Part shown: positions 40,753 through 63,099 of the stretch, one piece after another
Numbering within the stretch: position 1 is the stretch's first letter
How the letters are laid out: each line of letters begins with the position of its first letter
Source of the DNA: a virus
Strand: one strand, 5' to 3'
Virus record (IMG/VR): IMGVR_UViG_3300021185_001461
Coordinates: 1-64,000 of that record
Length of the DNA stretch: 64,000 bases
Notes under the pieces: generated by a model
The model's input: only the letters and a program-made list of their open reading frames with translations
What the model was told of the DNA's origin: nothing
The model's database searches: none
Made by a program: the position numbers and the translations under genes

Positions 40753-41724
40753 CTATTTTTCGTTAATTTGACGTTCAAATTCTCTTAAACGTTTGAATAC
40801 ACTCATTAACTCAATAAGTGTTGGCCACGCTCTGAAGAGATATTGCATACTGCCTTCTACTCTTCCAAATGCACGAATAATCTGTTGCATTACACCAAGT
40901 GTTACTACACCTGCTACAATAGCCGGTGCTAAGAACACATATGCACTTAGTACGTTTGCTTGTAAGTATGTAATACGTCCAACATTAAAATACAAGTAAC
41001 GCAAATAAGACTTAAAGTGAATACCACGAACATCTTGGAAAAGTTCGTTAATAGTTTTTGGTCTTACTGTTGCATCGTCTTCTGCAATAACAAGTATTTT
41101 TCTGTATGCCGCTTCTTTTTTCTGCAAATCATATTCAACACCAACTAAGCGTAATATCCAACCTAGTGCTATTAAGAATAATGTTCCGCCCACTGACCAA
41201 ACAATAGCACCTGTAACAAGTCCATATTGCCAATCACCAAAGAAGAAGATAGGAATACCTACTGATAGTCCTAATAGAATAGGAACGAACTGTACTAGAA
41301 CCATTATTGATTCAATAAAACTTGTACCTAATCCTTCCATAATACGACTAAACTTAATCGTATCTTCTTGTACCCTTTGTGCGGCACCTTCAATAGTTCT
41401 AGCTTTGTCATATACTGAATGATACCATTCTACCATTGCAGTACGCCATCTAAATAGATAGTGTGCAGTAAAGTAACTTACTACAACCGCAATACCTACA
41501 TATATAGCCGCTAGGTATAAGAAACTTGCTAAACTACTCCAATACTCACCTATAGTGATTGCATTAGGTGTTGCTAGGGCTTTCTGGATCATATCATAGA
41601 ATTGACCGAACCATTCGTTAATTTTAACATCAATTTCGACTTGTACCCAAAGTGATGATAAAATTATTGCGGAACCTACCCAGGACCACAAAAGCCATTT
41701 CTTTTCTGTAAAAAATCTAAACAT
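40753..41724 (-). CDS. sbmA: SbmA/BacA-like peptide transporter
   Basis: V.INEWFG.FYD.IQ.AL, HY.FRWRTAM, IEGAAQRVQEDT, Q..EAAYRK.LV..ED, F..V..S.QYL...W.T..EL.S..KRL..FE; likely start MFRFF. Confidence 0.88.
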   Translation of the reverse strand: MFRFFTEKKWLLWSWVGSAIILSSLWVQVEIDVKINEWFGQFYDMIQKALATPNAITIGEYWSSLASFLYLAAIYVGIAVVVSYFTAHYLFRWRTAMVEWYHSVYDKARTIEGAAQRVQEDTIKFSRIMEGLGTSFIESIMVLVQFVPILLGLSVGIPIFFFGDWQYGLVTGAIVWSVGGTLFLIALGWILRLVGVEYDLQKKEAAYRKILVIAEDDATVRPKTINELFQDVRGIHFKSYLRYLYFNVGRITYLQANVLSAYVFLAPAIVAGVVTLGVMQQIIRAFGRVEGSMQYLFRAWPTLIELMSVFKRLREFERQINEK

Positions 41725-41836
41725 AGTGTTTATCCTTATATAAATGCAGAATATTAACTGCATACATAACTATTTAGCCTTTTCTACGATGGGTTATTAT
41801 AAAAATGGATAAATACAATATAACAAGGAAAACCAC

Positions 41837-59644: not shown

Positions 59645-59856
59645 AGCAAAATAGGTAGGACTCGGTTATACCTACAAGCACGTACACAGAATACCATTCT
59701 ATCACGCACAACCTAGTTCCGCTCGGTAGAGCAATGTGATCCTTAGTCTCTCAACCTCGAACCTGGGTACCACCCCTAACTAGTCAAGTTCGACCCTTCT
59801 GGTAAAGGCCTCTTCCTTGCACTATAAACAAAAGTTAATTATTCTCTTGTTGCTAT
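59645..59856 (-). ncRNA. Candidate structured non-coding RNA (~200 nt)
   Basis: Own sigma70 promoter; multiple stems whose G-U pairs work only on the minus strand; terminal hairpin plus U-rich tail; GC-rich relative to the genome; no credible ORF. Confidence 0.65.
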
Positions 59857-59862
59857 GTACTT

Positions 59863-59891
59863 AATATACAACGTTTTTGCATAAAGGTCAA
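59863..59891 (-). promoter_or_regulatory. Sigma70 promoter of the candidate ncRNA
   Basis: TTGACC-17-TATATT, preceded by an AT-rich UP-like tract. Confidence 0.7.
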
Positions 59892-59909
59892 CCTTTTTTT
59901 TAAAAAAAA

Positions 59910-60062
59910 TTAAATTTTTTGTAATCTAGGGTCTGATGCAAGAATATTCTTGTCAGCACGTGGTCTTGACAATGGTCTTTGCAGTTGTTTTTTGTGAATT
60001 GCTTTGTGTGATCGTTTAGTACGCTCTTTTTTACGAGCTATTTCGAAGTCTCTATGATTCAT
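59910..60062 (-). CDS. 50-aa basic peptide MNHRDFEIARKKERTKRSHKAIHKKQLQRPLSRPRADKNILASDPRLQKI
   Basis: Manually translated; AAGGAAG RBS; directly downstream of the glutamine riboswitch. Confidence 0.7.
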   Translation of the reverse strand: MNHRDFEIARKKERTKRSHKAIHKKQLQRPLSRPRADKNILASDPRLQKI

Positions 60063-60087
60063 AACACTCTTCCTTTTAAAGTTAAGT

Positions 60088-60132
60088 GCGTTCCTTCGCT
60101 AGTGCTACTTCCGTCCTAATTTAGGATGAACG
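60088..60132 (-). promoter_or_regulatory. Glutamine riboswitch (glnA RNA motif)
   Basis: CGUUC-A-UCCUA(AAU)UAGGA-C-GGAAGUA-GC(ACUA)GC-GAAG-GAACG-C: P1/P2/P3 three-way junction with E-loop. Confidence 0.8.
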
Positions 60133-60136
60133 TGAG

Positions 60137-60168
60137 AAAAAAATAGGCCCAATAAAGGGCCTATTTTC
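60137..60168 (-). terminator. Terminator after the major capsid gene
   Basis: AATAGGCCC-loop-GGGCCTATT followed by a U-tract on the minus strand. Confidence 0.85.
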
Positions 60169-60195
60169 ATATTGAATATGTATTCTAGTAAAATA

Positions 60196-61359
60196 TTACT
60201 GGAATGACAAGTTACCTGAGTTAACATCAATTTTAGATAGGTAATCAGCTGCGTTACCAAGAGATGAAGCTTGGTTGTTTAGCTCAACATAACCATAACG
60301 TGTCATAAATGATACTGTTGGTTCGAATGTTGCCGGATCTAATACTGTGCCTGAGCTCATTAGTGGGATGTATGGGCAGTAAAATGCTGCTGCATCAATC
60401 TCACCGTCGCCTTTATAGCCAACTAGTACTGGAGCATTATCTGCCGCGTACTGGTCAACAAAAACACGCATAGTGCCGTTCAAAGTACCAACAAATTTAG
60501 TGTTAGTTGGAGCTTCGAATGGTCCTTCAGTTGTTCTTGCGAACGCTGAAGTTGTTGCACTTTGTAGTACAGTTAACATTGTTGGTGAAATAACAACGTA
60601 GTTACCTGCGCCTCTACGTGTACGTGCTGCGATTAAGTTAGCTGATCTGTTAATAAGAACTGCCAACGCCGCATGCTGGTCTCCAACAAACGTTGCTGTA
60701 CCAGAAACGTTACCCTGGTCATATGTGTCTGTTGCCGTACCCGCTAATGTGCGAAGTGAAGTTAAAACTTCTTGATCAATCTCAGCAGTAATTTCTTGTG
60801 CAAGTGCTTGCATAATTTCTGCTTCAACGTCTAGACCGTGCATTGAATTAGCATCTTGTGCCGCTTCAAAAGTCCAACGTGCTGATAATTTACGTGTTTT
60901 CGCTTCAACAGTTTGTTTCAATACTTGGATTGAAAGCTTCTTACCAGCTTCTGCCTCTAGTGCTGAAGTTGAAGTTGCTGTACCGTTTGATGCGTCACCT
61001 GAGTAACCTTTTGCAATTGCGAAAGGTGATAGTGCTTCATCACCAGCTGTTACGCCAGCTGCTGTTTGGCCATATCTTACTCTTAATGTGTGAATTTGTC
61101 CTACTGGACCTGTCATAGGTTGTACACCTACTAGTTCGTTTGCGATAACTGTTGGCATCACACGACGAATAACTGGAAGAATCACTTTGTTAAGTGATGC
61201 TACGTTACCTGCCATAGTTGTGCCAGCATTAGCTGATTCTGAAAGGTAGCCCTTAGTGTTTTCTAGGACTGATTCCATTACAACCTTTTTGTTACCTTCT
61301 AAGCCATCTGTAAGGGCGTCTTTTGTAACGTCCCAATTTTCAAATAGATTCTGTGTCAT
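60196..61359 (-). CDS. gp23: Major capsid protein (T4 gp23-like)
   Basis: GVQPMTGPVGQI..LR, VEAKTRKL.ARWT.E.AQD, EITAEID, YCPYIPL, F.P....TRYG. Confidence 0.97.
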   Translation of the reverse strand: MTQNLFENWDVTKDALTDGLEGNKKVVMESVLENTKGYLSESANAGTTMAGNVASLNKVILPVIRRVMPTVIANELVGVQPMTGPVGQIHTLRVRYGQTAAGVTAGDEALSPFAIAKGYSGDASNGTATSTSALEAEAGKKLSIQVLKQTVEAKTRKLSARWTFEAAQDANSMHGLDVEAEIMQALAQEITAEIDQEVLTSLRTLAGTATDTYDQGNVSGTATFVGDQHAALAVLINRSANLIAARTRRGAGNYVVISPTMLTVLQSATTSAFARTTEGPFEAPTNTKFVGTLNGTMRVFVDQYAADNAPVLVGYKGDGEIDAAAFYCPYIPLMSSGTVLDPATFEPTVSFMTRYGYVELNNQASSLGNAADYLSKIDVNSGNLSFQ

Positions 61360-61371
61360 TTGGAATTCTCC

Positions 61372-62469
61372 TTAGTTGATTCCTGCTAACTTTTTAAGGT
61401 TAATAATTTCGGCTTTACTATCAGTTTCCTGAGTCGTGTCTGCCTTGTTACCGGTAATCTCAGTCTTCTGAGATTCTGTTAGTTTTTGTGACTTAACTGG
61501 GCTTGATTCGTTTAATACTGTTGGTAAGTATTTGTTGAATTGAGCTTTAAGTTTACTTGTGCTTACGCTTTCAAGTAAATTGTTCATTAATTCACGCTTA
61601 TCTTTAGATAGTGGAGACATAAGTTCAGTCATAACTGCCTCACGCTCACGGCTTTCATTGATCTTCGCAACTTGTTTTTCTGCTACATCAATCTTTGCCT
61701 CTCTATCTGCAATTTCTTTTTGTGATTCGTCAAGTTGACTTTTCACATCTGAAAGTTCTTTTGAAAGTTTTGAAATGTGTGTTCCTTCAGCTATATGAGA
61801 ACTCATAAACTCAGCTGCAAAAGTTTCGAACAATTTACGTCCGAACATATTTTCTTTTGCTTGCTTGATGTCTTCTTTCAACGTACCTAATTCTGTTGAC
61901 AATGTTGTATCAACAATACTAGCTAGTTTGCCAGAAGCTTTGTTTATAAAGTCTTCTTTTGCTTTAGTGATCATTTCTTTACCTTCCGCGACAAGTTTTA
62001 CCTTTTGTTCAATAAGGTCTTTCTTATCACTATGGAATTCATTAAGTTCTGAAGTAAGTTGTTCCATCACAAAATCTTCTAGCTTCTCAAAGTTGCCTTC
62101 TTGTAGCTTTCTGTCTTTGCGTAGTTCTGTAATTTCCTTGTTAAGCGTTTCCATAACAAACTTATCAAGTATTTCTGCATGTTGCGAAATTTGACGTTTA
62201 TACTCAACTTGAGCTTCTACTGCCGCTTTTTTGTCCGCTGCAAATTCTTTCAATTCGGTATTAATCGTATCTGATACCATGGCATCTAGTGCTTCCACCA
62301 TTGATGTCTTATCAGTTTCGTACCTGTTAGCGAATTCTTCACGTAATTCAGCAGTGATCTCTTCACGAGCTTCTGTTAAACGTTCTTCCCATGCTTCTGA
62401 AAGTGTTGAACGCACTTCCTCAGAAAGGACTTCGGAACTTAGGAGTTGTTCTATTGCATTATTAGCCAT
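61372..62469 (-). CDS. gp22: Prohead core scaffold protein (gp22-like)
   Basis: Acidic coiled coil between gp21 and gp23. Confidence 0.85.
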   Translation of the reverse strand: MANNAIEQLLSSEVLSEEVRSTLSEAWEERLTEAREEITAELREEFANRYETDKTSMVEALDAMVSDTINTELKEFAADKKAAVEAQVEYKRQISQHAEILDKFVMETLNKEITELRKDRKLQEGNFEKLEDFVMEQLTSELNEFHSDKKDLIEQKVKLVAEGKEMITKAKEDFINKASGKLASIVDTTLSTELGTLKEDIKQAKENMFGRKLFETFAAEFMSSHIAEGTHISKLSKELSDVKSQLDESQKEIADREAKIDVAEKQVAKINESREREAVMTELMSPLSKDKRELMNNLLESVSTSKLKAQFNKYLPTVLNESSPVKSQKLTESQKTEITGNKADTTQETDSKAEIINLKKLAGIN

Positions 62470-63099
62470 CTAGCTTCTCCTAATGTTTAGTTTTTCAATG
62501 AACTTTAATACTTCCTTCTGGAGGTATGTTTCGGCTAAATTATCGTCTTTTGCCGCAGCAGCAACGTCAAGTAAGATGTTACCACGATGACCATTCATAA
62601 TTTGTTCATATAAAGGATCTGGGTAGGCATCTGGTGCACTTGGGTTAGCAACAATATCAACAGTTTGTATTTCAAAATCACTGACATTACCGCTTTCTGC
62701 TACATTACCACTACCTCTTGACGAAACGCCAAGTTTTACTCCATTCTCTAATAGGGTTTTACAAATATTTCCCATCGGAGTAGGTAGCAATTTTAAACGA
62801 CCATAACCGTCTTGACCGTCCATCCACATTTTTTCAATCATGTGAGATACACGGTCTAAATTAACTTGCAAATCATCTGGATGATCTGCTTCGCCTAATA
62901 CTGAATAACCAGTTTCAATTTTTTCTTGTATTGCCTTAACGGCTTTTGAAATTTCATTAACTGGATAAACTCTACTATTCTGATTACGCTTGTCACCTTG
63001 TACAAAGATACCTTGCATAAACAAGTTCTTACCTTCCTGATCTGACTCAGTAATGATTTTCGCTTGATCATAACTTAGATTCTCTTTAAGTGTAAGCAT
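62470..63099 (-). CDS. gp21: Prohead protease (gp21-like)
   Basis: N.N.RVYP, GEADHP (His), GVSSRG (Ser), DIV.NPSAPDA. Confidence 0.95.
   Translation of the reverse strand: MLTLKENLSYDQAKIITESDQEGKNLFMQGIFVQGDKRNQNSRVYPVNEISKAVKAIQEKIETGYSVLGEADHPDDLQVNLDRVSHMIEKMWMDGQDGYGRLKLLPTPMGNICKTLLENGVKLGVSSRGSGNVAESGNVSDFEIQTVDIVANPSAPDAYPDPLYEQIMNGHRGNILLDVAAAAKDDNLAETYLQKEVLKFIEKLNIRRS

Follow-up and report, generated by a model that had tools for sequence, protein, structure and literature searches.

A glutamine riboswitch and a small basic ORF behind the capsid gene

The DNA analyzed here (the window) is a stretch of 64,000 nucleotides that makes up positions 1 to 64,000 of the viral record IMGVR_UViG_3300021185_001461; the record in full has 121,228 bases, with 35% G+C. 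The locus of interest lies on the minus strand, where a gene for a Gp23-type major capsid protein is followed by a terminator-like hairpin, a type-1 glutamine riboswitch aptamer, an expression platform and an open reading frame (ORF) for a basic peptide of 50 amino acids, which belongs to a group of viral proteins that we call family A (Table 1). A preliminary description of this locus had quoted a 45-nucleotide minus-strand string, which is present at 60132 to 60088, and had read it as a glnA-type riboswitch standing ~25 nucleotides before an ORF with the ribosome-binding site AAGGAAG. The measured spacer is 26 nucleotides, from the last G of P1 at 60089 to the AUG at 60062 to 60060, and AAGGAAG lies within it.

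Table 1. Features of the locus, in window coordinates
Feature	Positions	Strand	Basis and details
Gp23-type major capsid protein gene	60196..61359	-	PF07068, 337.9 bits; phrog_138
Sigma-70-like promoter match	60182..60210	-	TTGTCA-17-TAGAAT, 10/12; overlaps capsid stop codon
Terminator-like hairpin	60139..60168	-	AAAAUAGGCCC-UUUAUU-GGGCCUAUUUU and U-run; by fold
Type-1 glutamine riboswitch aptamer	60085..60134	-	RF01739; P1 CGUUC/GAACG, P2 UCCUA/UAGGA, P3 GC/GC, conserved junctions
Expression platform (predicted)	60063..60088	-	Arm CACUU 60088-60084, Shine-Dalgarno sequence AAGGAAG 60075-60069, arm GAGUG 60069-60065
Family A gene, 50-amino-acid basic peptide	59910..60062	-	ORF; charged helix 3-28 and conserved C-terminal tail
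manA RNA and sigma-70-like promoter match	59645..59891	-	RF01745; promoter 59863-59891, 10/12

The whole window was scanned with Infernal against all 4227 Rfam families, and only two families score above their curated cutoffs, RF01739 (glnA leader) and the manA RNA RF01745. The RF01739 match has 52.5 bits, where the gathering score is 35, with E values of 1.2e-8 for the 64-kb window and 5.1e-12 per genome, and it spans model positions 1 to 53 of 53, which confirms the glnA architecture. All upper-case consensus bases are matched from the 5' strand of P1 (CGUUCA) onward, and the junction bases CGGAAGUAG and GAAGGAACGCA are all present, including the C after P1; among the 85 distinct sequences with letters at both columns, 81 have this C in a C-G pair. 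The three-helix junction also covaries: P1 is 100% paired, P2 is 91.5% paired (4/4 pairs double-changed), and P3 is 87.1% paired (3/3). Among the 81 family A loci that we compared, P2 is UCC/GGA in 36, GGC/GCC in 42, GCC/GGC in 2 and UCU/AGA in 1, and all 20 of the loci sampled from this set at even steps score at or above the Rfam cutoff. The full 121-kb record has a single copy. Based on the covariance-model match and the covariation, we conclude that the window element is a genuine type-1 (glnA-type) glutamine riboswitch, and this copy would be expected to bind glutamine. As a find, a phage-encoded glutamine riboswitch is less new than the preliminary description made it, since such elements are already in print for cyanophages and for the phages Melnitz and Mosig.

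Family A is a virus-only gene family with a constrained tail

The ORF behind the aptamer was correctly described as a K/R/H-rich reading frame of 50 amino acids (K8 R8 H3 D3 E2), with a net charge of +11. The accompanying remark that it looks disordered applies to only part of the product. AlphaFold2, run with a 27-sequence alignment, predicts a confident helix at residues 3 to 28 (predicted local distance difference test score, ~90 to 96), which is hydrophilic and nonamphipathic, and it is the tail at residues 29 to 50 that has low confidence (~58 to 62; mean for the peptide, 77.7). M1, D5, K25, P34, N39, D44, P45, Q48 and I50 are invariant in the 27-member alignment, and the C-terminal motif of the family is [SA]RP[RK][AC]xKN[IL]xSxDP[RK][LM]Q[KG]I. 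For 47 unique 50-codon sequences, the Nei-Gojobori ratio of nonsynonymous to synonymous substitution rates is 0.165 over the whole gene (1081 pairs in total, 83 dropped as saturated and 996 used for this value), with 0.23 for the helix and 0.12 for the tail taken separately; differences at codon positions 1, 2 and 3 are in the proportions 29/21/49%. The most constrained part of the protein, the tail, is therefore one that is not predicted to fold by itself. This combination is typical of docking motifs, and we suggest that the tail looks like one for a partner.

The ORF is also widely conserved. A large protein collection contains 24 family A clusters at 64 to 96% identity, all 50 to 71 amino acids long and on contigs of up to 226 kb; the closest of these (96% identity) has 14 member sequences on 27 contigs. 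An exhaustive profile search of 1.84 billion representatives gave 49 clusters (50% identity), nearly all of 35 to 101 amino acids, and a scan of viral contigs with two family A motifs gave at least 517 confirmed loci. Among prokaryotes (one genome per species, 185,579 species), only two contigs encode family A. One of them (L127), from a metagenome-assembled genome (MAG) labeled "Rickettsiales bacterium," carries family A, an aptamer and baseplate wedge genes, and is probably a phage (myophage) contig binned into the MAG; the other (L128), from a "Thermoplasmatales archaeon" MAG, carries family A without an aptamer. Based on these sequence comparisons, we conclude that family A is a real, conserved and large virus-only gene family.

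Its members have so far gone by the label "hypothetical protein," both in Joint Genome Institute (JGI) annotations and in GenBank phage records. Four family A representatives match no Pfam family at an E value of ≤10, and the window peptide matches none at ≤0.1. None of the 27 aligned members is matched in PHROGs or in PADLOC. A profile search of the PDB gave a single match, at an E value of 0.33, and in the ESM Atlas there are unnamed clusters only, the nearest named entries being DUF6800 (0.87) and bL32 (0.80), which is chance level. A search of the full-text literature, which covered main texts and to which supplements may add, found no description of the family. We also considered a capsid-targeting role, from a likeness of the N termini of some of these peptides to the capsid-targeting sequence of T4 internal proteins, and dropped it; the protease site to be expected is not conserved, and the stretch of likeness is too short for a test.

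Viral glutamine aptamers and small basic ORFs occur together

For comparison, we used the window and the best 80 of the at least 517 family A viral loci, a set of 81 loci that are those nearest to the window and are mutually related. The aptamer lies upstream of the family A ORF in 81 of 81. Family A is also found in four cultured Pelagibacter phages. In Mosig, an aptamer of 50.0 bits lies directly before Mosig_00116, which is a family A member; the podophages HTVC023P (gp47) and HTVC104P (gp51) have full-length members without a nearby aptamer; and HTVC103P has a family A match by tblastn.

The association reaches beyond family A. An exact-core scan of viral contigs for the aptamer, with a pattern that fixes GACGGAAGUA and favors one P2 type, gave at least 120 stretches. 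The listed stretches together with the window, Mosig and Melnitz make up a set of 131 cores, of which 123 stand last or alone before a gene; the other eight are the upstream members of tandem aptamer pairs (in L007 to L126). Among these 123 listed aptamers, 117 are followed, 15 to 39 nucleotides downstream, by a complete ORF of 28 to 78 amino acids (median, 45). Four of the remaining six have ORFs cut by the end of the locus and two have no ORF; one of these two loci ends after 21 nucleotides, and in the other, a variant second aptamer comes next. The downstream peptides are all net basic (117/117). The largest cluster has 47 of them and the window's family 17, followed by clusters of 16, 12 and 11 and by smaller ones. 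At least five further basic peptide families (28 to 78 amino acids) stand behind glutamine aptamers in loci L007 to L126, among them a W..C type (28 to 52 amino acids), a type of 64 to 65 amino acids with NG.GTSGY, and types with MTKYQ...NPFYP, with YRG repeats and with MK..FVQYLK...PQVA. Only the YRG-repeat cluster gives matches to DUF4278, with 23.7 and 19.9 bits, which are below the gathering cutoff of 25.3. Alignment of family A with the four other larger peptide families by hhalign gave a probability of <1% for each. As judged from this arrangement, viral glutamine aptamers nearly always precede a small basic ORF, which may be from any of several unrelated families. No description of such a rule was found in full-text literature, where again supplements may bear on it.

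The platform helix covaries among viral leaders

In the window, the CACUU arm of the platform begins directly 3' of P1 and the GAGUG arm stops 2 nucleotides before the AUG. The local minimum free energy of this platform is -5.7 kcal/mol, and an equally good fold arises in 3 of 200 shuffles. Of 89 unique leaders, 64 have a contiguous helix of at least 5 bp that begins at base 1 or 2 after P1. As a control, 3' partners were exchanged among leaders with different 5' arms; over 200 rounds, such swaps gave a helix of this length in a mean of 32.1 leaders and in at most 42. The arms change in compensation (CACCU/GGGUG, CACUUU/GAAGUG, CAUCUUU/GGAGAUG, CGCCU/AGGUG and CAAUCUU/GAGAUUG). Twenty leaders have fewer than 4 bp, and by eye, most of these show a shifted CUUUAC/GUAAAG pairing over the Shine-Dalgarno sequence.

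A covariance model was built from 31 seeds that were picked for having the helix and that serve as the model only; it aligned 112 matches, 98 of them distinct. Over these 98 distinct viral sequences, 92.2% of the paired cells hold pairs. The corresponding figure for shuffles is 78.2%, with none of 500 shuffles as high as the real alignment, and it falls to 35 to 54% once the partners are slid. In the platform helix, 88% of the cells are paired and 6 of 6 pairs are double-changed (e.g., UA 37, CG 30, UG 8), counts that are to be read as nonindependent events, given an alignment fitted to the model and a set of related sequences. The mean fold of the leaders is -8.0 kcal/mol, compared with -3.6 kcal/mol in controls with shuffled 5' parts. 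Local folds place the AGG of the Shine-Dalgarno sequence opposite a conserved CUU (CCU and GGG in Melnitz), which suggests an inner CUU/AGG helix over the Shine-Dalgarno sequence.

The covarying platform helix fits the published model of a translational switch that glutamine turns on. In Synechocystis, the type-1 switch of gifB raises the synthesis of the inactivating factor IF17 in response to glutamine, and the authors postulate a pairing of the C after P1 and its neighbors with the ribosome-binding site, which glutamine would melt (Klahn et al. 2018, PMC6212724). A review describes a ligand-dependent linchpin pair, G23-C60, at the base of P1; it is this pair that the C after P1 forms. The ~100 natural variants analyzed here give comparative support for the pairing of the bases after P1 with the ribosome-binding region.

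Transcription of the cassette

The capsid gene is the last gene of a prohead operon, after the genes for the protease (62470 to 63099) and a scaffold-like protein (61372 to 62469). The preliminary description placed the cassette just behind the Gp23 gene and its terminator, and both are where it had them: the hairpin with its U-run ends the capsid transcript and abuts the aptamer, and the same hairpin precedes the aptamer in three relatives (L129 to L131). It was seen by folding only; a consensus terminator scan found 0 sites, and it probably missed this hairpin since the stem absorbs part of the U-run.

The sequence TAAATA lies within 30 nucleotides upstream of the aptamer in 76 of the 81 loci. 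It is missing in the window and in 4 of the 80 relatives, including L129 to L131, and in the window the aptamer abuts the U-run of the terminator. In the intergenic DNA of the phage, TAAATA occurs 44 times compared with 14.6 expected (~3-fold), and elements of the ATAAATAC type are found upstream of the gene that opens the prohead operon, of the portal gene and of two structural genes farther downstream. TAAATA is likely the late-promoter motif of this phage group, which we take to be akin to the late promoter of T4-type phages. Because the window cassette has no TAAATA of its own, the most likely source of its transcripts is read-through from the capsid operon. The sigma-70-like match over the capsid stop codon is a possible alternative start of the cassette transcript; the scan that gave it found 5 sites compared with 2.8 expected in shuffles, and it may be a chance match.

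We also compared the window, at 90% likeness, with the contigs of four metatranscriptome runs, each from a different study. These contigs cover the capsid gene in all four runs, the manA region in three and the aptamer in two. The contigs over the aptamer carry differences and loose ends, which means that they come from relatives. Positions 59936 to 60002, in the 3' part of the ORF, are uncovered in 4 of 4 runs, and 59869 to 59935 are covered in run X17 only. One RNA contig of a relative runs from the 3' end of a capsid gene through a divergent 78-nucleotide spacer into an aptamer. This is a weak hint of read-through, as contigs are not single transcripts and DNA carryover is possible. Transcription of the cassette by read-through from the capsid operon, as the preliminary description had suggested, is plausible.

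A proposed switch and the evidence on both sides

These observations can be joined in the following mechanism. Late transcription of the prohead/capsid operon would read through the capsid terminator and take in the cassette as the last part of the operon. In the absence of glutamine, the CACUU directly after P1 would pair with the GAGUG between the Shine-Dalgarno sequence and the AUG, and its CUU would probably pair with the AGG of the Shine-Dalgarno sequence as well, so that a small hairpin adjoining P1 closes the ribosome-binding site. Glutamine binding would then draw the junction G into P1 to pair with the first C of the arm, a step that we take from the literature. The hairpin would open and the peptide would be made, which would make the element an ON switch at high glutamine. 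The platform helix and its covariation are observed; the ON direction is proposed by analogy with gifB. The peptide itself would be an effector under dosage control that binds a partner through its tail and is produced only in infected cells that are nitrogen replete. On balance, we favor, with some reserve, the view that the element acts on translation of the 50-amino-acid ORF as a type-1 glutamine-ON switch, joined to late expression of an effector by read-through. In this way the phage probably ties production of the peptide to the nitrogen state of the infected cell.

Several observations weigh against this view, besides the nonindependence of the covariation counts. The platform helix of the window is weak, at -5.7 kcal/mol compared with -10.1 kcal/mol in a relative (L007). 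Sequestration of the Shine-Dalgarno sequence is not clear, as the paired fraction of its core is 0.60 compared with 0.47 in controls, and 35 leaders have at least three of four Shine-Dalgarno nucleotides paired, compared with 31.8 (maximum, 41) in controls. The plain minimum-free-energy fold of the whole leader fails to form P1; on this ground, we judge plain thermodynamic folding to be a poor guide for the type-1 glutamine aptamer. The ON direction is modeled on one cyanobacterial example. The family A members of HTVC023P and HTVC104P have no aptamer, and the function of the family therefore does not require glutamine control. The gap in RNA coverage over the 3' part of the ORF, which could be counted here, is neutral. 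Finally, the lineage of the window has lost TAAATA, and the cassette might therefore be poorly expressed.

The last point leads to the alternative that the cassette is a decaying or silent remnant in this lineage, or that the switch is of the OFF type. The loss of TAAATA in the window and 4 of 80 relatives, the hairpin and U-run directly upstream of the aptamer and the weaker platform helix would all fit a remnant. In contrast, the aptamer matches every conserved consensus base, the ORF, Shine-Dalgarno sequence and AUG are intact, and the closest protein cluster, at 96% identity, has its 14 sequences on as many as 27 contigs. A sigma-70-like site lies upstream, and in a relative, one RNA contig connects the capsid gene with the aptamer. 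We therefore regard a remnant or an OFF switch as improbable.

Neighboring genes and the manA RNA

The same-strand upstream neighbor among the 81 loci is S-adenosylmethionine decarboxylase (SpeD; AdoMet_dc, 51.3 bits) in 29, the capsid gene in 25 and a NifU-like gene in 12; the rest have other ORFs or no ORF. Because these neighbors are so varied (NifU-like protein, a helix-turn-helix [HTH] protein and other ORFs), the cassette behaves as a free module. This bears on the possibility that the peptide is a nitrogen-costly polycation made when nitrogen is plentiful, either as a head-internal or DNA-condensing protein or as a partner of SpeD. A net charge of +11 and a hydrophilic, nonamphipathic helix would suit such a role, as would the frequency of capsid (25/81) and SpeD (29/81) genes directly upstream and of the late-promoter-like TAAATA (76/81). 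However, the NifU-like, HTH and other neighbors point to a free module, and there is no SpeD gene in the 121-kb record. A SpeD-peptide fusion, which would be a protein of SpeD size that matches at its C terminus, was not found among 13 longer proteins and the 49 representative clusters. The tail, with its sharp conservation, argues for a specific protein partner over generic binding of polyanions. We consider a polycation role doubtful, though less so than the other alternatives discussed here.

On the downstream side of the ORF, the manA RNA at 59645 to 59850 scores 59.8 bits against RF01745 (gathering cutoff, 55.2). A manA-like RNA lies within 400 nucleotides downstream in 45 of 64 assessable relatives. 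By upstream context, it is present in 18 of 19 loci with SpeD, 19 of 20 with capsid, 4 of 4 in context U326, 1 of 1 with HTH and 3 of 3 others, and is absent in the NifU (0/12) and U62 (0/5) contexts. Its presence across at least four upstream contexts indicates that the two modules mostly move together. It is conceivable from this that the cassette and manA are one unit, in which the peptide binds manA RNA or the switch sets transcription into manA. There is no terminator between the ORF stop codon and manA in the window, and the peptide shares a basic, helical character with many RNA binders, as such a unit would have it. In contrast, manA has its own promoter-like site and is missing from the NifU and U62 contexts; HTVC023P and HTVC104P have family A without manA RNA; the two lie 16 kb apart in Mosig; and only 4 of the 20 sampled relatives reach the Rfam cutoff for manA. 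A functional unit of cassette and manA is accordingly unlikely in our estimate.

Other RNAs are found near the cassette in some relatives. Freshwater-2 RNA (RF02980, 66 to 73 bits) lies a few hundred bases downstream in 5 of the 20 sampled relatives (L141, L157, L165, L169 and L201), and in others, tRNA genes flank the cassette, which tends toward spots rich in RNA genes.

Comparison with gifB and IF17

Glutamine riboswitches have been seen as essentially cyanobacterial devices that control IF17 (Klahn et al. 2018, PMC6212724). The gifB leader of Synechocystis sp. PCC 6803, as described there, shares with the window the RF01739 aptamer, its place in the short 5' leader of a gene for a small basic protein, and bases right after P1 that are proposed to pair with the ribosome-binding region. 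The differences are that the product of the window is not a DUF4278/IF17 protein, that the phage has no cyanophage markers in 121 kb, and that the cassette stands behind a capsid operon. In this giant marine phage, a known sensor stands before a microprotein of another kind, one that is found in viruses only.

The preliminary description had considered an IF17-like peptide, and this likeness does not extend to the protein sequence: in addition to the absence of Pfam matches for four representatives, hhalign gives 0.04% for family A against the viral YRG/DUF4278-like family. The likeness to IF7 and IF17 is one of design, not of descent, in that the peptide is small, basic and glutamine gated, with a constrained tail that does not fold alone. 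It could still be a functional analog of IF7 and IF17, which would bind and shut off the glutamine synthetase (GS) of the host at high glutamine. The regulatory logic is that of gifB, a type-1 switch before a small and very basic protein. IF7 is reported to act by electrostatic contact through conserved arginines, and family A has conserved R/K positions and a strongly constrained tail of low structural confidence. A separate viral family behind the same aptamer has the weak DUF4278 matches noted above. However, family A shows no Pfam match at an E value of ≤10 and no relation to the YRG family (<1%), and GS inactivating factors are described as unique to cyanobacteria. No cyanophage marker and no GS gene is present in the record, and family A occurs in four cultured Pelagibacter phages. 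We think it unlikely that the peptide is a GS inhibitor. Among the possible functions, we thus rank a partner-docking effector first and a polycation, packaging or polyamine role second, ahead of GS inhibition and a manA-linked role.

Glutamine aptamers in other marine phages

The Pelagibacter phage Mosig and the Methylophilales phage Melnitz (Buchholz et al. 2022, PMC9004378) carry the same aptamer, with 50.0 and 52.8 bits, respectively, and the spacer, Shine-Dalgarno sequence and AUG of Melnitz are nearly identical to those of the window, whose phage is a jumbo myovirus of a different lineage. In the same report, the Melnitz switch is said to control an upstream two-piece transfer-messenger RNA (tmRNA; ssrA). 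The aptamer overlaps the 3' end of the annotated tmRNA feature (L005, MZ577097.1, positions 2500 to 2669). Behind it is an unannotated basic ORF of 32 amino acids (L005, 2572 to 2669, plus strand), which belongs to the largest peptide cluster (47), and the record instead annotates a 33-amino-acid ORF on the opposite strand. Judging from this architecture, the switch most likely controls the hidden 32-amino-acid ORF, and the link to ssrA would be a misreading of direction. If so, the published reading of Melnitz is to be corrected in that the target is the ORF and not the tmRNA.

The type-2 (downstream-peptide) switch of marine picocyanobacteria is a further case of a glutamine leader before short conserved ORFs (17 to 100 amino acids, functions not known) (Weinberg et al. 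2010, PMC2864571). It differs in its aptamer, RF01704, which has a pseudoknot, and in its ORFs, which are mostly DUF4278-like (Klahn et al. 2018, PMC6212724); family A is unrelated to them. RF01739 aptamers are also reported from T4-like cyanophages, often with manA and wcaG RNAs (McCown et al. 2017, PMC5473149; for S-CREM1, PMC9964418). These cyanophage reports, in their main text, list the RNA only. From two examples, McCown et al. (2017, PMC5473149) concluded that riboswitch use is rare in phages. In contrast, we find at least 120 aptamer stretches in viral contigs and at least 517 family A loci.

A wider reading of these data is that marine phages commonly use glutamine riboswitches as a portable sensor of nitrogen, which gates at least six unrelated families of tiny basic proteins, and that family A is a virus-only effector that docks through its tail onto a host or phage target. 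We advance it tentatively, as something that we would not yet expect to hold in full. Candidate targets for docking would be nitrogen or polyamine metabolism or the cotraveling manA RNA. If this reading is true, phages run a small program of glutamine-gated microproteins late in infection, phages of heterotrophs and jumbo phages included, with proteins that standard annotation mostly misses. The peptides are in any case candidate effectors for coupling late gene expression of phages to the nitrogen status of the host in a nitrogen-poor ocean, and a cultured system is at hand, since Mosig, which grows on Pelagibacter HTCC1062, has the same aptamer and a family A gene.

The source phage

We assign the record to an uncultured giant marine phage, a jumbo myovirus. 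CheckV estimates that its 121 kb are about one-third of the complete genome. T4-type portal, capsid, sheath, gp15 and gp25 genes are present, and none of the 112 ORFs scanned in the record is a photosystem, hli, GS or PII gene. The window has no tRNA genes. At the DNA level, the capsid gene is 66 to 69% identical to those of jumbo phages of Pseudomonas, Yersinia, Vibrio, Erwinia and Escherichia, hosts that are Gammaproteobacteria.

Three further features of the record are of note. The window has an unusual auxiliary gene, a full-length gene for an SbmA/BacA-like inner-membrane peptide transporter at 40756 to 41763 on the minus strand (PF05992, 467.7 bits). Outside the window, on the plus strand of the full record (G000), lies an ORF of 3416 amino acids without any Pfam match (86874 to 97124), and farther along (104878 to 117204) there is a cluster of genes for three radical S-adenosylmethionine (SAM)/SPASM proteins, a methyltransferase, a HAD hydrolase and a nucleotidyl transferase.

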